Of a DNA stretch of 5,387 nucleotides, positions 1-5,387 are shown one piece after another. Source of the stretch: a virus (taxonomy: Duplodnaviria > Heunggongvirae > Uroviricota > Caudoviricetes). The position numbers were made by a program, and so were the translations under genes. Within the stretch, counting starts at the first letter, position 1. Every line of letters starts with the position of its first letter. The stretch lies in IMG/VR virus record IMGVR_UViG_3300000292_000170, one strand, 5' to 3'. Under the pieces are notes generated by a model that saw only the letters and a list, made by a program, of their open reading frames with translations, did no database searches and was not told the DNA's origin.

Positions 1-462
1 ATGCTGGGTGATTGTTTCCCTCCTGATTTTAAGGCTAATTTTAGTCGTGAAAGAGGTATATCACCCGGTGATGTATTGTATCTTCATTGTGATTTTACGA
101 CCCCACCTAAAGTAAAATATATGGTGGTTGTTTGCTGTGAACCTCTTTTAGTTCTTCTAATAAATTCAGATATAAATGAATTTATTAAGAGAAACAATGA
201 TCTTATGGCTTGTCAGGTCGAAATTAATAGAGAGGACCATGATTTTCTTAAATGGGACTCATTTGTTAATTGCATTGAGGCTCATGCTGCTTTCGATCTT
301 GAAATTATTAAAGAGAAAATAGCCATCCAATATGGCGACGTGCTAAAAGGTCGCATTACAGATCATTGTATGAGACAAGTTCGATGTGCAGTTGAGATAT
401 CTAAAATCATGGTTAAACGGCATAAAAAACTGATACTCGCTGCTCTTCAACATTATGAATAA
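1..462 (+). CDS. Hypothetical protein, 153 aa, markedly AT-rich orphan ORF convergent with the prophage operon; possible moron/cargo gene
   Basis: Uninterrupted ORF from ATG at 1-3 to TAA at 460-462. Composition is visibly AT-rich compared with the rest of the window (by-eye estimates of about 35% versus about 50% GC), with Lys/Ile/Asn-rich codon usage. No family motif recognised by eye. Followed directly by a hairpin terminator. The start coincides with the window edge, so the true 5' end cannot be verified. Confidence 0.55.
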   Translation: MLGDCFPPDFKANFSRERGISPGDVLYLHCDFTTPPKVKYMVVVCCEPLLVLLINSDINEFIKRNNDLMACQVEINREDHDFLKWDSFVNCIEAHAAFDLEIIKEKIAIQYGDVLKGRITDHCMRQVRCAVEISKIMVKRHKKLILAALQHYE

Positions 463-495: not shown

Positions 496-768
496 TTAAA
501 TGAGCCTTTGTTTATGGGTTCTGACCCTTTCCCACTCAGCACGCCCTTCTTCTCGCCTTTTGTCTATGTATTCCGCAAGATCCTGAATATTGATGCAACG
601 TTTTGCTTTTTGTGATGTGCCGATGCGATATGTTGGAACGGGCAACTTACAAGCGTTTGCTTTTGCTTCTGCCGTGGCTGGACTCATGCCAAAGTACTTT
701 TGGCTAACTGCTGAGAGTTCAATGTTAGGGGTATTGAATTCAGCCATCAGTAAAAACAAGGTGTTCAT
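496..768 (-). CDS. PrtN-family (pyocin-activator-like) small DNA-binding protein, putative excisionase/recombination directionality factor
   Basis: Minus-strand ORF ending at TAA (496-498). The translation contains the KLPVPTYRIG...IQDLAEYID region, which I recognise as characteristic of PrtN/excisionase-like phage proteins (recognition by eye, unverified). The ORF track starts it at GTG 795, which has no Shine-Dalgarno sequence. ATG at 766-768 is preceded by GGAG (ATGGAGAAAATTATG) and is the best-supported start, giving 90 aa. ATG at 778-780 is an alternative. Confidence 0.6.
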   Translation of the reverse strand: MNTLFLLMAEFNTPNIELSAVSQKYFGMSPATAEAKANACKLPVPTYRIGTSQKAKRCINIQDLAEYIDKRREEGRAEWERVRTHKQRLI

Positions 769-804
769 AATTTTCTCCATCAAAACCGGCTGCACCCGGG
801 AAAA

Positions 805-1377
805 TCATAATTCTGTGCTGGTGGCAGGAATTAATTTCTGCCAGATAGCGGAAACATATTTTGCCTGATGACGGGCATCGGCCAGGGCGTTGTGCCGTTC
901 GCCATCGAAAGGCATGTCCATTTTGGGGGCGAATCCGATGGAACGCCCAAGCGTAACGATCGTGCGTACATCGTGGTCATTCCAGTATGCCCACGGGCAG
1001 ATTTGTCCTGCTCGCTCATAAGCTCCACGTAAAATTACGTTGTCGAAGGTGGCCCCGTTACCCCAGACTTTTAAATATTTTGTATTGTCTGCATGCTGAT
1101 TAATGAAATGGCTCAGTTCAGAGAGTGCATCGCTGATCGACAAAGTATCATCAATACAGATTGCAGCTCGTGCTTCAGGGCTCTGTTTCAACCACCACAG
1201 GATGGTATCGCCGTCAGGTGTGGCCCCTTGCTCCATAGCACTTTCCAGGCTGACAACCGTATAGAATTCTTGTCCGATGTCTCCGGTTTCTGGGGTGAAG
1301 AACACCGCGCCAATGGAAACGATTGGTGCATCCTTATTTTTCCCCATCGTCTCAAGGTCGATCATTAAGTTGTTCAT
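805..1377 (-). CDS. DEDDh-family 3'-5' exonuclease (DnaQ-like fold), phage-type
   Basis: 190-aa ORF. N-terminal IDLETMG matches the Exo I D-x-E motif and C-terminal HNALADARH matches the Exo III H-x4-D motif of DEDDh exonucleases. Strong Shine-Dalgarno AGGAGGTG (reverse complement of 1383-1390) sits 5 nt upstream of ATG 1375-1377. The start overlaps the upstream stop as TAATG. Confidence 0.75.
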   Translation of the reverse strand: MNNLMIDLETMGKNKDAPIVSIGAVFFTPETGDIGQEFYTVVSLESAMEQGATPDGDTILWWLKQSPEARAAICIDDTLSISDALSELSHFINQHADNTKYLKVWGNGATFDNVILRGAYERAGQICPWAYWNDHDVRTIVTLGRSIGFAPKMDMPFDGERHNALADARHQAKYVSAIWQKLIPATSTEL

Positions 1378-1688
1378 TACTTCACCTCCTGCGTTTCTTT
1401 GCTGCTGTGAATTCGCCAGTTACCGACGCCTTCCCATTCAAACTGGCGGTTACTAATTCGCGTCCAGCCCCTGCCGAAAAGCAAATCCAGATACCAGTAT
1501 TTTAAAGTTCTGATAATTGCTCTTACAGTTGGTTTGCATCCAGAAGTCTTTGATGCGCAAATAAAGCACCGAGTTATGCTCATGGCCTCTACAAAAGGCC
1601 AGATAAACCAAACCCAGATGCAAAGAGCCACGAACAACATGAGCGCAATGTTAGCCACTAAGCCAGACCAGTGCAGATAATTGCTCAC
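1377..1688 (-). CDS. Small Trp-rich membrane protein (hypothetical), 103 aa
   Basis: GTG start at 1686-1688 preceded by a perfect AAGGAGG (reverse complement of 1695-1701) at 6-nt spacing. One clear hydrophobic segment, LVANIALMLFVALCIWVWFIWPFV, predicts a transmembrane helix. GTGA overlap with the upstream gene's stop and TAATG overlap with the downstream exonuclease start. Confidence 0.6.
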   Translation of the reverse strand: MSNYLHWSGLVANIALMLFVALCIWVWFIWPFVEAMSITRCFICASKTSGCKPTVRAIIRTLKYWYLDLLFGRGWTRISNRQFEWEGVGNWRIHSSKETQEVK

Positions 1689-1924
1689 TGGTTGCCTCCT
1701 TTACGGATCTGCGCTGCGATGCGCGAAAAAAAAGACTCCCGCGTATGACTGTTAAGAGCTGGCGCGAACGCTGCGTTAAGAACGGCAGCATCACAGCCGT
1801 CATCGATATAGAGCGCAATTTTTTTCTCCAGGCGCGCTTTGGCTTCCTGCAACTGCATACCCCGGCACGCACGCGGGATATACTCAGCAATTTGAGCGAT
1901 AGATTTTTCGTTCTGTTTAAACAT
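1685..1924 (-). CDS. Hypothetical phage protein, 79 aa
   Basis: ATG at 1922-1924 preceded by GAGGTGA at about 5-nt spacing. The stop overlaps the next gene's GTG start as GTGA. No family recognised. Confidence 0.55.
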   Translation of the reverse strand: MFKQNEKSIAQIAEYIPRACRGMQLQEAKARLEKKIALYIDDGCDAAVLNAAFAPALNSHTRESFFSRIAAQIRKGGNQ

Positions 1925-2120
1925 GCTTCACCTCGATAGGCTTGATGGTGTCGATCAGTAGTCGGAGGCGCGTATTTTCTGCAAAGTGGCGGCGTCCGGT
2001 TTCTTTGTGGTAAAACTCGTTTTTGCCGACGACCCACATCCGCTCTGTCTGGTGAAGTTTTTTTACCTGCGGGCCGTCTTTGGTGATCACAATGCCGGTA
2101 TGGGTTTTTACGATTGTCAT
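1917..2120 (-). CDS. Hypothetical phage protein, 67 aa
   Basis: ATG at 2118-2120 preceded by GAGGTGGTGG. The start overlaps the PAPS-reductase-like stop as ATGA, and there is an 8-nt overlap with the downstream gene. No family recognised. Confidence 0.55.
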   Translation of the reverse strand: MTIVKTHTGIVITKDGPQVKKLHQTERMWVVGKNEFYHKETGRRHFAENTRLRLLIDTIKPIEVKHV

Positions 2121-2995
2121 GCCACCACCTCTTCGAATTTCAATTCCAATTGATCACCCCAGATTTCACATGACTCTGAACACGAGCCGGTATCGAATCG
2201 CCTGGCTTGCACCATCGCTTGATACAAATTTCTGTAGTCGCTGTCGGCATACATTCTGGCAATCCCGTCAAGGCTCAGATGACCACGGTACATAACGTCT
2301 TTATTTGTCTTTCGGTGACCATCCCGGACGTGTTTACCTGTAACCAGCTCATTAAAAACTCGCATCAGACCAGGTTCGTCTTTACATGCAAGCCCCAGCT
2401 TTTGCGTGGACTTTTTGATGCAGAAAACACAGTTCCCGAGGTGCTCCGGGATTTGCAAATCAAAAGGTTGTTTATGCCACCACCGGATAACATCCGAGTT
2501 ATCAAAATCAGATAGCTCGGCAAGATACCGGACGCCCGATTTCGGTTTCAGCCTACGAGGTTCGTCTGCACGAATACCCAGCCATGTGATGTAATTCCCT
2601 CGTCCGAAATGGTCATCGCAGTATTTTGTGAAGGGGGTGAGTTTTAATCTGTCAGTGCAGAACGCGCCGCCGATGTATGGCGTGCCATATTTTTTTACCA
2701 TGTCCATAAACGGTTTAAGCACCGGCATTCGTGTCTGAATATCCTTTGGTTCCCATTCCGTATAACCATTTGGCTGCCCAAGCTCTGGATTTATATCGAC
2801 CTGCAACACAGTTAGCGGTATGCCCCAGAACTTCACAACCTCCCGAATAAAGCGGTATGTCAGCGGATGTTCGCAACCGGTATCCATAAAGATGTAGCAG
2901 ACGTTATTGCCAGCCTTTCTTTGTTCTTCCATCAGGTGAACAAGATATGCAGATGTTCTCCCGCCAGAAAAACTAACTACATGAGTTATGCACAT
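2117..2995 (-). CDS. Phosphoadenosine-phosphosulfate (PAPS) reductase family protein / PP-loop ATP pyrophosphatase-like, phage-encoded
   Basis: 292-aa ORF with N-terminal PP-loop motif VVSFSGGRTSAYL (SGGxxS), typical of the PAPS-reductase/DndC-like/ATP-sulfurylase superfamily. Cysteine pairs CVFC (residues 189-192) and CSESC (271-275) could ligate a metal or Fe-S centre. The start overlaps the upstream YfdR-like stop by about 10 nt. Confidence 0.8.
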   Translation of the reverse strand: MCITHVVSFSGGRTSAYLVHLMEEQRKAGNNVCYIFMDTGCEHPLTYRFIREVVKFWGIPLTVLQVDINPELGQPNGYTEWEPKDIQTRMPVLKPFMDMVKKYGTPYIGGAFCTDRLKLTPFTKYCDDHFGRGNYITWLGIRADEPRRLKPKSGVRYLAELSDFDNSDVIRWWHKQPFDLQIPEHLGNCVFCIKKSTQKLGLACKDEPGLMRVFNELVTGKHVRDGHRKTNKDVMYRGHLSLDGIARMYADSDYRNLYQAMVQARRFDTGSCSESCEIWGDQLELKFEEVVA

Positions 2996-3522
2996 TTGCG
3001 TAATTCCGATAACTCGTTAAAACGTTCCATAAACATCCCGTAGGCATGGCCTGGTGACAGTGGAATAACTTTGAACATCTCTGTTGCCGGGATGCCTTCC
3101 AGTACAGGCCAGAAAGAGCCATCATCAAGCCCGAGATCGCGGCGTTCGGTTGCCAGCATAATGAGATCGGCATATTTCACTGGCGTGCTCATAACAGGAG
3201 GTAACCCGTATTTCTCACGGATTACGGCGTCTATTTTTTCTTCCATCCGTTTATAGTCAGGAAGAGGTCGTTTCAGTGGCGCGGGGATGTCCTGGCAATA
3301 TGCTTCTGTTGCATCATGCATTAACGCTTCGAAAGCAAACTCCTGCGGTACCAGCTGGCTGCAAAGCACCGCATGTTGGGCGACGCTGTAGAAGTGTGAA
3401 AGATGCCCTGCAAAGCGACAGATATTTGAGAGGGAAACTGCGATATCGTTAATCACGATGTCGTCTTTATTTATCTTGTCATAATAAAAATGCTTCCCGG
3501 AAAAAGTTTTAATAAATGACAT
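2986..3522 (-). CDS. yfdR: HD-domain phosphohydrolase, YfdR-like 5'-deoxynucleotidase
   Basis: HD-domain signature: H in LSHFYSVAQH, HD in EALMHDATEAY, and downstream Asp residues. The ORF track begins at GTG 3549, which has no Shine-Dalgarno sequence. ATG at 3520-3522 is preceded by GGAGAACAAA, giving 178 aa, which equals the length I recall for E. coli CPS-53 YfdR. The symbol is assigned from recalled family, length and gene order, not from a search. Confidence 0.7.
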   Translation of the reverse strand: MSFIKTFSGKHFYYDKINKDDIVINDIAVSLSNICRFAGHLSHFYSVAQHAVLCSQLVPQEFAFEALMHDATEAYCQDIPAPLKRPLPDYKRMEEKIDAVIREKYGLPPVMSTPVKYADLIMLATERRDLGLDDGSFWPVLEGIPATEMFKVIPLSPGHAYGMFMERFNELSELRKCA

Positions 3523-3615
3523 TTTGTTCTCCACGTATATGCGCTGCACCGCGCTGAATTCTGGTAAAAGGAAGCTCTCACCATCCGGTGATTATTGAGT
3601 TAATTACGTTTCCAT

Positions 3616-3637
3616 AAATGCCCCCGCAGGGGCATTT
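3616..3637. other. GC-rich perfect hairpin in the yfdQ-yfdR intergenic region (possible attenuator, processing or binding site)
   Basis: aaatgcccc (3616-3624) / cgca loop / ggggcattt (3629-3637) forms a 9-bp perfect stem. There is no U-tract beyond the stem on either strand, so it is not a classical intrinsic terminator. It lies in the 127-bp gap between the stop at 3650-3652 and the start at 3522. Confidence 0.4.
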
Positions 3638-3649
3638 GCAGTAATGAAA

Positions 3650-4168
3650 TCAGGCGGTGAAAGTACCAATAAAGGTTTCGACTTTGCTGTCTTTGAATTT
3701 CTCAACAAGCAGATCACGAAATTCGTTAGCCATTTCTTCCTGCACCGCTTCCAGCTGAATAATGCGCAGAACCAGTACAGGACGATCGCCAGTGATAATG
3801 CTGAGGCGTAATTTAAACGGACGTTCTTTCAGGCCTTCAAACGGAACGCATTTAAATTCAAATGCCACTGGCATAATATCTTTGGTCTTCGCTTCGACAG
3901 ACTCCATCAGGGAGCGTTTGCCGCTGAAGTCATTGTCTTCAAAATCAGCGGTCTGGTTTGCTTCAATCGTGATTTTACGGACTGCCGCAGCCGCTTTTGT
4001 TGCCTGAATGGCATCACCATTAGCATCAAAGCCCACAAGGTAGTCGGCCCAGTCTTCAATCCATTCTGCCAGTGACTTCTGGGAGTTACGCTCGCCGTTA
4101 ACAGACAACAGAGCAGAGAACGGTGCTGTCTTTTTCAGTTTGAGAGTGGCGGTGTTATCTGCGTGACC
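3650..4168 (-). CDS. yfdQ: DUF2303/YfdQ-like phage protein, C-terminal 172 codons plus stop, truncated upstream by a scaffold gap
   Basis: Continuous reading frame from the N-run boundary at 4168 down to TGA at 3650-3652. The ORF-track start at 4108 is a TTG inside this frame. The codon boundary at 4168 is in frame with the N-terminal fragment at 4654-4959; joined, they give 825 nt, i.e. 274 aa, the length I recall for YfdQ. Symbol from recalled length and gene order only. Confidence 0.6.
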
Positions 4169-4178
4169 NNNNNNNNNN
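4169..4178. other. Run of 10 N: scaffold/assembly gap
   Basis: Exactly 10 ambiguous bases, a fixed-length spacer typical of scaffolders. Confidence 0.9.
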
Positions 4179-4368
4179 GTCTTTGGTCTTCGCTTCGACT
4201 GACTCCATCAGGGAGCGTTTGCCGCTGAAGTCATTATCTTCAAAATCAGCTGTCTGGTTCGCTTCAATTGTGATTTTACGGATCGCCGCAGCCGCTTTGG
4301 TTGCCTGAATGGCGTCACCATTAGCATCAAAGCCCACAAGGTAGTCGGCCCAGTCTTCAATCCATTCT
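4179..4368 (-). repeat. Divergent partial copy (about 95% nt identity) of the yfdQ-like segment 3878-4067, flanked by N-gaps; probable alternative-allele contig
   Basis: Direct alignment at offset 301 shows about 9-10 substitutions in 190 nt. The encoded peptide ([27 protein letters not shown]...) differs from the primary copy by a single V/I change, so the substitutions are almost all synonymous. Confidence 0.8.
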
Positions 4369-4378
4369 NNNNNNNNNN
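4369..4378. other. Run of 10 N: scaffold/assembly gap
   Basis: Exactly 10 ambiguous bases. Confidence 0.9.
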
Positions 4379-4643
4379 TGGTTCATCGATAGTACCCAGG
4401 TTAAGTACACTGACGGCACGCATATTATCGGCGTCGATAAAGCAGCGGGTGCCTTCATCTGCAAGATCTTTAGAATAACGGGTAAAATCATCGATGCTGG
4501 CAGTGGAAAGTGCACCACGGAAACGGAAGCGATTTAAATTAAATTTTTCCAGATCATGAATGCGGAAATTCTCAGGCAATGCCACAGCATCGGCACCAAT
4601 CTTACTGATAATTTCATTAACACCCTGAGCAGAAATAAGGGCA
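4379..4643 (-). repeat. Divergent partial copy (about 95% nt identity) of the yfdQ-like segment 4654-4918, flanked by N-gaps; probable alternative-allele contig
   Basis: Alignment at offset 275 shows about 12 substitutions in 265 nt, all synonymous: the peptide [68 protein letters not shown] is identical in both copies. Confidence 0.8.
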
Positions 4644-4653
4644 NNNNNNNNNN
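4644..4653. other. Run of 10 N: scaffold/assembly gap
   Basis: Exactly 10 ambiguous bases. Confidence 0.9.
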
Positions 4654-4959
4654 AGGCTCATCAATAGTACCCAGGTTAAGCACACTGACGGCACGCATAT
4701 TATCGGCATCGATAAAGCAGCGGGTGCCTTCATCCGCAAGATCTTTAGAATAACGGGTAAAGTCATCGATGCTGGCAGTGGAAAGCGCACCACGGAAACG
4801 GAAGCGATTTAAATTAAATTTTTCCAGATCATGAATGCGGAAATTTTCAGGTAATGCCACTGCGTCGGCACCAATCTTACTGATAATTTCATTAACACCC
4901 TGAGCAGAAATAAGGGCATGAATTTGATTAATTGCGGTTGCGTCTAAGTTCTGAGACAT
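4654..4959 (-). CDS. yfdQ: DUF2303/YfdQ-like phage protein, N-terminal 102 codons, truncated downstream by a scaffold gap
   Basis: ATG at 4957-4959 preceded by GAGGA at about 6-7 nt spacing. The frame runs to the N-gap boundary at 4654, ending on a complete codon (...NLGTIDEP). The ORF-track call 4534..4959 continues through the N-run into the variant copy and is an artefact beyond 4654. Confidence 0.6.
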
Positions 4960-5024: not shown

Positions 5025-5387
5025 TTAATGACCTGCTGCGCGGAGTTTTCCGTCAGGCTCACCGGCAAGAGTCAGTAATTGTCCCTGGTCTTCCTGCAGA
5101 ATAGTCAGGCGACCACCGCGATTGACATACATCGGCGTTTCGGTGGTGTCTTCTTCGGAAATTTTCCCGCGGTTAGTCGGACGAACATATGAGAGTTTGT
5201 GTTTTATTTTCACACGGTTCTCATCAAACGGTTCGATTTCCAGGTTGAGCGAGACCTTACCTTTGGTTTTCGTGTTCATCACACCGGAAGCGACTTCACT
5301 GAGAACTGCGCCGATTTTGGTTTCAAATACGCCGCCGTCCAGCTCCCCGATAAATGCCTGCACATCAGTACTGTGTTCGCTAGCCAT
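5025..5387 (-). CDS. Hypothetical phage early protein, 120 aa (position corresponds to yfdP in a CPS-53-like arrangement)
   Basis: ORF from ATG at 5385-5387 (window edge, so upstream context is unseen) to TAA at 5025-5027. Same strand and operon as the downstream genes. No family motif recognised. Confidence 0.55.
   Translation of the reverse strand: MASEHSTDVQAFIGELDGGVFETKIGAVLSEVASGVMNTKTKGKVSLNLEIEPFDENRVKIKHKLSYVRPTNRGKISEEDTTETPMYVNRGGRLTILQEDQGQLLTLAGEPDGKLRAAGH

Follow-up and report, generated by a model that had tools for sequence, protein, structure and literature searches.

A lambda NinC homologue in a variable slot behind yfdR of an Escherichia coli prophage, a PP-loop protein with a possible role in counter-defence

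The PP-loop proteins with which the gene described here can be compared are known from two sides. On the host side, DndC of the phosphorothioation machinery is an iron-sulfur (Fe-S) protein with ATP pyrophosphatase activity (PMC8569181), and BrxP-type phosphoadenosine phosphosulfate (PAPS) reductases are reported to be tied to phosphorothioation in type 4 BREX systems (PMC12914056). On the phage side, two genes of Vibrio phage 44E38.1, p0018 and p0019, enabled growth on a Dnd-protected host after they had been moved into a sensitive sister phage, which already carried the Dam domain as a separate gene (Piel et al., bioRxiv 10.1101/2021.05.05.442762). A paper from 2026 cites a phage PAPS reductase as aiding the evasion of Dnd and reports such genes from anti-defence hotspots (PMC13551039). 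Here we compare these systems with a 5,387-nucleotide stretch of caudoviral DNA (IMG/VR record IMGVR_UViG_3300000292_000170), whose full length is called the window in the following. It contains an open reading frame (ORF) of 292 amino acids (aa) for a PP-loop protein of the PAPS reductase superfamily (2117-2995, minus strand), a ninC-like gene recognised by its ORF, Pfam and PHROG 424, which follows yfdR, the gene for an HD-domain 5'-deoxynucleotidase of 178 aa (2986-3522, minus strand; recognised by its ORF, PHROG 318 and orthology to E. coli K-12). The original prediction, which was made from the letters of the DNA, had located both genes correctly, including their overlap, which amounts to exactly 10 nucleotides (nt), and had interpreted them as a translationally coupled module for the manipulation of nucleotides or the modification of phage DNA.

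Judging from its sequence, the "PAPS-reductase-like" protein of the window is a homologue of NinC (Orf290) of phage lambda, a relationship that had been missed in the original prediction. The two proteins are 78.4% identical over aa 2-292 (tblastn against phage genomes), the lambda record annotates the matching gene as ninC between ninB and ninD, and many P22-like Salmonella phages annotate their homologue as NinC. PHROG 424 matches the window protein across aa 5-291 (E 5.9e-93). Size, PP-loop and the motifs GNCxFC and CSESC are common to the lambda and the window protein, whereas the N-terminus, which is set by the local junction, differs (MIN in lambda, MCITH in the window). The genes also differ in their location: that of lambda lies in the rightward nin region, that of the window in a leftward operon after yfdR, where it stands between yfdR and small ORFs and not in the typical nin-region position from the replication genes to Q. 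The NinC family is large, with 5043 matches at E <=1e-3 in a word-indexed search and, in an exhaustive search of 50%-identity representatives, 1636 at E <=1e-3 and 820 at E <=1e-10. Purifying selection on NinC is strong (ratio of non-synonymous to synonymous substitution rates 0.07-0.10 among close alleles), and both ninC and yfdR are intact.

The distribution of individual ninC alleles provided some observations in their own right. An allele that is 93% identical to NinC of the window is present in 62 records of Stx2a-converting phages and in Shigella phage Ss-VASD; a ninC-like gene is therefore common among clinically relevant toxin-converting phages. The lambda allele (78% match) was retrieved from assemblies labelled Pseudomonas, Kitasatospora, Oceanobacillus, Bradyrhizobium, Shewanella, Enterococcus and others (genome contigs of loci L004, L005, L006, L007 and L009-L014). 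Some of these contigs are about 48.4 kb long and several contig names imply a coverage of about 1x; contamination with lambda DNA is the most likely source of this allele in assemblies of unrelated organisms. A 294-aa protein encoded on 20 contigs (P0023) corresponds to NinC up to about aa 229, is joined there to the C-terminus of a DUF551 protein and has lost the CSESC tail; it probably represents a decayed or recombinant allele.

The assignment of the protein to the PAPS reductase superfamily, as a PP-loop protein with conserved cysteines, was right. The Pfam model PAPS_reduct (PF01507) matches with 37.1 bits at a cut-off of 22.5, aligning aa 5-72 with only positions 2-66 of the 175 profile positions, and the closest solved folds found by Foldseek are CysH and adenosine phosphosulfate (APS) reductase with TM-scores of 0.37-0.47, the closest structures by sequence being 2goy and 6vpu. 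Orthology to CysH was considered and rejected: the NCBIfam model (PRK02090) yields 20.3 bits, compared with a cut-off of 154, and in hhalign the alignment of the family profile with E. coli CysH is limited to aa 4-69. The catalytic motif ECGLH of CysH is absent from the window protein, whose tail reads GSCSESCE. The likeness to CysH and APS reductases (PDB 1sur, 2goy, 6vpu) consists in the N-terminal pattern SFSG...DTGxxxPxTY and extends over about 65 residues, whereas NinC possesses an additional helical region (about 80 residues) and has another genomic context. Fe-S APS reductases are characterised by four cluster cysteines (CC...CxxC) and a catalytic cysteine on the tail; NinC has a single C113, the pair C189xxC192 and then C272/C276 on a disordered tail. 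In the PADLOC library of defence proteins the best match is SspD (E 1.5e-15, 55.7 bits). SspD, DndC and BrxP have the N-terminal PP-loop half of the superfamily in common with NinC, whereas its C-terminal half is family-specific. Because the models of CysH, SspD, DndC and BrxP match only in part, the sequence comparison places NinC on a separate branch of the superfamily that is none of the four; the classification by profile models proposed earlier for CysH and DndC thus returned the superfamily, but neither of the two proteins.

These comparisons bear on the main rival explanation, according to which the protein is a true APS/PAPS reductase, an auxiliary metabolic gene product that boosts sulfate assimilation of the host, i.e., the supply of sulfite, during infection or lysogeny. 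A large part of the virome literature takes this view of such genes, and the PAPS_reduct score above the cut-off, the nearest folds and the shared DTGxxxPxTY stretch are in agreement with it; the arrangement of a cysteine, a CxxC pair and tail cysteines presumably recalls Fe-S APS reductases as well. Nevertheless, the alignment with CysH comprises only aa 4-72, the CysH score is far below its cut-off, the TM-scores are low and the ECGLH motif is lacking, and E. coli has a cysH gene of its own. The neighbours of 84 non-redundant homologues are genes of replication and recombination and never those of sulfur assimilation, and the repeated fusion of NinC with DNA methyltransferases reported below would be senseless for sulfur metabolism. 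Given the brevity of the match with CysH, the genomic surroundings and the fusions, we regard a role in sulfate assimilation as improbable.

The conservation of individual residues was investigated in an alignment of 94 sequences, consisting of the window protein and 93 diverse homologues. The PP-loop SFSGGRTS (aa 8-15; 2951-2974, minus strand) is conserved at S10, G11, G12, T14 and S15 in 89-98% of the sequences and is followed by DTGCEHPLTYR (aa 38-48; 2852-2884, minus strand), a stretch common to CysH and APS reductases (DTGxxFPETY). The segment FCTDRLKL (2639-2662, minus strand) contains the invariant residues C113 and K118 and presumably recalls the CCxxRK loop of APS reductase. The first cysteine pair, CVFC (aa 189-192; 2420-2431, minus strand), with invariant C189 and C192, lies inside the invariant GNCxFC, and the second, CSESC (aa 272-276; 2168-2182, minus strand), with C272 and C276 conserved at 95-99%, is located on a tail predicted to be disordered. 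Altogether, S10, G11, G12, T14, S15, T39, G40, E42, T46, K118, G140, R142, D144, E145, R148, G187, N188 and K195 are conserved at 89-100% and the five cysteines C113, C189, C192, C272 and C276 at 95-100%, while the other cysteines of the window protein vary; all of the family-conserved residues, i.e., the PP-loop, the five cysteines, K118, R142 and R148, are present in the window protein. The translation hence confirmed the motifs SFSGGRTS, CVFC and CSESC, and the putative catalytic residues are kept across the alignment; both cysteine pairs originally described are real, but the conserved cysteines number five and C113 had been overlooked. The AlphaFold (AF2) model of the window protein (pLDDT 87, pTM 0.85) exhibits a PP-loop alpha/beta core, and residues 267-292 with C272 and C276 are disordered in this model. 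Such a disordered tail recalls the mobile tail of CysH that carries the catalytic cysteine. The cysteine pattern suggests a metal or Fe-S centre formed by C113, C189 and C192, accompanied by a mobile thiol arm.

An indication of what NinC may act on comes from its fusion partners. In-frame fusions of the NinC domain with DNA methyltransferases are encoded by 16 of 89 non-redundant loci and are of three types, namely, NinC-Dam (PF05869), NinC with a D12 N6A methyltransferase (PF02086), and a three-part C5-NinC-Dam/D12 protein. The fusions have retained the PP-loop, GNCVFC and CxESC; the one exception is locus L125, which is without a PP-loop match. The three-part architecture is realised in single ORFs of about 970-1100 aa (L035, 4402-7698; L041, 4438-7530; L128, 4582-7485), which are candidates for multi-purpose anti-restriction proteins of Mixta, Sodalis and related prophages. 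Physical proximity is also found between separate genes: seven ORFs neighbouring the 84 non-redundant homologues, two upstream and five downstream, match DNA methyltransferase families, and ninC adjoins a methyltransferase gene in Salmonella phage Oslo. Among the fusions is p0018 of Vibrio phage 44E38.1, a PAPS-reductase-Dam protein that is 55% identical over 96% of the window protein and contains all signature motifs. It differs in its C-terminal Dam domain, whereas the window protein is unfused and ends 16 residues after CSESC. Due to the fusions with three classes of DNA methyltransferases and the anti-Dnd activity reported for this homologue, the evidence points to DNA-directed counter-defence and not to sulfate assimilation. 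Our best explanation is accordingly that yfdR and ninC are two independent genes of an early operon and that NinC is a stand-alone PP-loop enzyme for a counter-defence that acts on DNA or targets phosphorothioate-type (Dnd/Ssp-like) immunity, an explanation for which we see about equal chances of being right and of being wrong. The proposal that the pair serves DNA modification or the evasion of restriction is plausible for the PP-loop protein by itself, where the methyltransferase fusions and the anti-Dnd homologue lend it support, but not for a joint role with YfdR.

As an enzyme of counter-defence, NinC would bind ATP or a sulfonucleotide in its PP-loop and activate a phosphate or a carbonyl group. 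Sulfur would be transferred through a cysteine/Fe-S centre of C113, C189 and C192, with the mobile tail carrying C272 and C276. Two outcomes are conceivable: adenylation and sulfur chemistry of the DndC/SspD kind might mark the phage DNA as self, perhaps with the help of host IscS or Dnd partners, or NinC might interfere with the phosphorothioation or restriction machinery of the host. The existence of the Fe-S centre, the identity of the substrate, the type of chemistry and an equal job of the unfused E. coli protein are inferred, as is the step from a conserved PP-loop/cysteine enzyme linked to methyltransferases to an action on the DNA backbone. In its most specific form, namely that NinC proteins including that of lambda are self-sufficient or host-assisted Fe-S PP-loop enzymes that install a sulfur or adenylate mark on phage DNA, such as a phosphorothioate at those sites which Dnd/Ssp-type immunity inspects, or that chemically disable this machinery, the proposal is tentative and rather unlikely to be correct.

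Several points weigh against a function in counter-defence. The Vibrio experiment involved two genes, one of them a fusion, and does not isolate the NinC domain as the cause, and the fusion of domains in polyvalent anti-restriction proteins can mean a common purpose instead of a common substrate. The match with SspD is limited to profile positions 2-125 of 277, i.e., the N-terminal half, that with DndC is partial (E 9e-4, 16 bits) and that with BrxP covers 52 residues (E 7e-5); no dnd, ssp or BREX genes were found in the 29.6-kb context. The putative Fe-S centre is read solely from the pattern of cysteines. The PP-loop contains a threonine where classical ATP pyrophosphatases have an aspartate (SGGxDS) and resembles the SFSG of sulfonucleotide reductases, which makes the use of ATP by NinC uncertain. 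Lambda NinC was non-essential in a CRISPR interference mapping once polarity on Q was relieved, is dispensable on K-12, has been listed as "poorly understood" and showed no interactions in a two-hybrid map. No unusual modification is known from the DNA of lambda grown on K-12, although this DNA has been studied intensively. Finally, literature searches retrieved no functional study of lambda NinC or of the window protein, and the original prediction was right in stating that the function of phage PAPS-reductase-like proteins is not established.

Two other modes of action have to be weighed against enzymatic counter-defence. In the first, the target of NinC would be a base, located in tRNA, in some other RNA, in a free nucleotide or in DNA, which it would adenylate and either thiolate or aminate, comparable to TtuA, NcsA, TilS, LarE and QueC, instead of acting on the DNA backbone. 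The absence of RNA-binding or tRNA-recognition domains, the position of NinC in the PAPS-reductase/SspD branch and the published phenotype, which is anti-Dnd, render this unlikely; the C-terminal 130 aa are without a known match. In the second, NinC would be a non-catalytic decoy that mimics DndC or SspD and thereby poisons or titrates complexes of phosphorothioation or restriction. Homology to the PP-loop subunit of the phosphorothioation machinery, the anti-Dnd phenotype and the lack of phage-encoded partner genes would fit such a decoy, but the residues of the active site and the five cysteines are conserved at 89-100% in a very diverse family under strong purifying selection, and NinC is common in hosts most of which are not known to carry dnd or ssp. 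Catalysis by NinC is favoured because the PP-loop, the charged residues and the cysteines are conserved and the selection is purifying, and a decoy function seems quite improbable.

The physical linkage of ninC and yfdR was the starting point of the original prediction, in which the two proteins form a dedicated, translationally coupled module that reshapes the pool of deoxynucleoside monophosphates or modifies phage DNA. Both are plausibly nucleotide-directed enzymes, and in 281 complete genomes of E. coli they are adjacent and share the 10 nt. The overlap (2986-2995, minus strand) arises because the downstream gene has its ATG within the final codons of yfdR (AAATGTGCATAA). In the K-12 counterpart of the junction (AAATGCGCATGA) the ATG likewise lies in the last yfdR codons, and the same 10-nt overlap serves yfdS in K-12 prophage CPS-53 and EaE in phage vB_EcoM-720R4; the 3' end of yfdR supplies the start codon to whichever gene comes next. 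The ninC-like gene would have been placed downstream of yfdR, borrowing a start codon within the yfdR stop region, and the N-terminus of NinC varies with the upstream neighbour (MCITH behind yfdR, MSTHH in an O157 strain, MHQ on a plasmid, MIN in lambda). Moreover, between the exonuclease gene and yfdR every gene overlaps the next, by 1, 4, 8, 4 and 10 nt at the five junctions, so that overlaps represent the style of the whole operon and no special mark of the yfdR-ninC pair. The 10-nt overlap that had been taken as evidence of translational coupling is thus real, but it is not specific for these two genes.

The distribution of the two genes largely refutes a common module. With a query of 1601 nt over both genes, matches were obtained in 3087 of 5426 E. 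coli genomes, of which just 281 cover 80% or more of its length. A yfdR gene without ninC is about ten times as frequent as one with it. Close copies of ninC are present in 425 E. coli genomes, with 74 places on plasmids, and about one third of them are without yfdR. A near-isogenic comparison is provided by the prophage of E. coli 730V1, which is at the same site 99.3% identical to positions 1-2110 of the window and 97.6% identical to positions 2988-4168, and which harbors a gene for a 120-aa YfdS-like protein in place of ninC. The exchangeable cassette thereby delimited (2111-2987, unstranded) roughly equals the ORF itself. Conversely, the same ninC allele is located behind other genes in O157 strain 272 and on plasmid pE2865-1. 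Among 162 loci with homologues, taken from genomes and from viral contigs, a neighbouring yfdR is confined to those with a NinC identity of 94% or more; in lambda and in some 150 further loci, NinC has no yfdR next to it. A conserved yfdR-ninC pairing was therefore rejected, because across these loci it is restricted to near-identical E. coli copies. The co-occurrence check proposed earlier speaks against the functional two-gene module on both levels (281 of the 3087 matching genomes; near-identical E. coli copies among the 162 loci), and nothing links both genes to a joint manipulation of the nucleotide pool. The occupation of the same slot by YfdS or EaE with the same overlap, in K-12, in 720R4 and in a near-isogenic prophage, and the many ninC copies without yfdR leave a dedicated module very improbable: yfdR and ninC are independent neighbours, and ninC is a single-gene cassette in a variable slot.

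The immediate neighbours of the 84 non-redundant homologues include no constant partner. They are genes of replication and the nin region, encoding HTH_36, SSB, DnaD_N, NinG, NinB, DnaB and Q, and DUF6475, the type of Vibrio p0019, is located upstream of just two homologues. This neighbourhood could be read as an indication that NinC is an accessory factor of recombination or replication, a "NinC-like recombination protein" in the wording of some annotations, that acts together with NinB/Orf and NinG/Rap, between whose genes ninC is found in lambda and in P22-like phages; SSB, NinB, NinG and replication proteins are also its commonest neighbours. However, the fold is that of a nucleotide alpha-hydrolase and not of a nuclease or an annealing protein, the window gene is located away from any nin region, and the nin region is known to be a mosaic in which unrelated accessory genes are combined. 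We consider a role in recombination highly improbable.

The identification of YfdR as an HD-domain 5'-deoxynucleotidase proved to be correct. The protein is identical to YfdR of E. coli K-12 prophage CPS-53, which RefSeq names 5'-deoxynucleotidase, in 174 of 178 residues (98%), and PHROG 318 ("deoxyribonucleoside 5' monophosphate phosphatase") matches it with E 7e-109; the YfbR-like Pfam model scores 23.9 bits, slightly below the cut-off of 25.9. The HD dyad is intact at aa 69-70 (3313-3318), with H50 upstream. The ATG start at 3522 is the one annotated by RefSeq in identical genomes, and an alternative, longer GTG start exists at 3549. YfdR is reported to bind DnaA, and overexpression of yfdQ-yfdR-yfdS-yfdT to inhibit the initiation of replication (PMC4776307). 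This half of the observation is biology already known. The window and CPS-53 agree in the order yfdP-yfdQ-yfdR upstream and in the identical junction, whereas the window contains the ninC-like gene instead of yfdS and other small ORFs instead of yfdT.

All recognisable genes of the window but one are located in a single, tightly packed string on the minus strand. Upstream of yfdR lie yfdP (5025-5387, minus strand), which is cut by the window end, and yfdQ/DUF2303 (from 3650, minus strand). Downstream of ninC follow an ORF of 67 aa (PHROG 1226; 1917-2120, minus strand) with a 4-nt overlap, which stands after NinC in several E. coli contexts and after EaE or YfdS in others, and next in the same overlapping string an ORF of 79 aa (PHROG 1344; 1685-1924, minus strand). 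They are succeeded by an ORF of 103 aa (PHROG 2531; 1377-1688), whose product is predicted from its sequence to be membrane-associated, a gene for an Rv2179c-like DEDDh exonuclease (805-1377, minus strand) and one for a PrtN/excisionase-like protein (496-795, minus strand). Several complete chromosomes of E. coli match positions 2000-3600 of the window with 100% identity, and in them RefSeq labels the two genes as "phosphoadenosine phosphosulfate reductase family protein" and "yfdR: 5'-deoxynucleotidase". There the pair sits leftward of a gene pair for a LexA-family (CI-type) repressor and a Cro/CI-family regulator, and the lambdoid prophage adjoins a truncated gene for tRNA-dihydrouridine synthase. 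This synteny indicates that the operon would be the early-left one of a lambdoid prophage of E. coli. A promoter and terminator scan gave no convincing internal signal between yfdR and ninC on the coding strand, and an Rfam scan of the window found no RNA family.

Some features of the window lie outside the yfdR-ninC region. Three runs of exactly 10 N interrupt yfdQ (4169-4178, 4369-4378 and 4644-4653, within 4169-4654); the fragments between them duplicate parts of yfdQ at 95-96% identity, and the reference genomes are continuous from the equivalent of 4168 to 4655. The region looks like a scaffolding artefact that joins alternative prophage alleles, and the disruption of yfdQ like an apparent one only. 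Homologues of YfdP and YfdQ are also present near the NinC-Dam fusion of Vibrio phage 44E38.1. In a locus of the type of Vibrio phages 34E29.1 and 44E38.1 (L003, 1-1248), the genes for YfdQ (DUF2303) and YfdP have as neighbours those for an ERF annealing protein, a YqaJ-domain protein and an exonuclease of the RNase T type. The counterpart of this exonuclease in sister phage 66E30.1 (p0028) is the site of retron-escape mutations (Piel preprint). YfdP and YfdQ may thus belong to a recombination module. The 103-aa ORF (1394-1674 in this comparison) stands where E. coli KGu016 harbors DUF551 and Ea22-like genes, which marks another exchangeable slot. At the opposite end, an ORF of 153 aa without a family match (1-462, plus strand) is situated in a low-GC stretch (GC fraction 0.35). 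It is found in just 46 of 5426 E. coli genomes and directly follows a Panacea-domain gene at the prophage end in complete genomes, which suggests that it encodes the toxin partner of a PanA-type toxin-antitoxin pair.

There is nothing unusual about the pair as such: hundreds of E. coli genomes carry annotations of both proteins, YfdR is characterised and the family of the second protein is already known. What the comparison adds is that a "PAPS reductase" counted as a sulfur-metabolism gene in viromes is, in this lineage, lambda NinC. If NinC proteins act in counter-defence, this would provide a function for a lambda gene that has been without one for four decades and would reveal a widespread counter-defence against phosphorothioate-type immunity, often fused to methyltransferases in multi-purpose anti-restriction proteins. 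Since phage and host are fully tractable in the case of lambda and E. coli, what NinC does is open to direct testing with strains that already exist.

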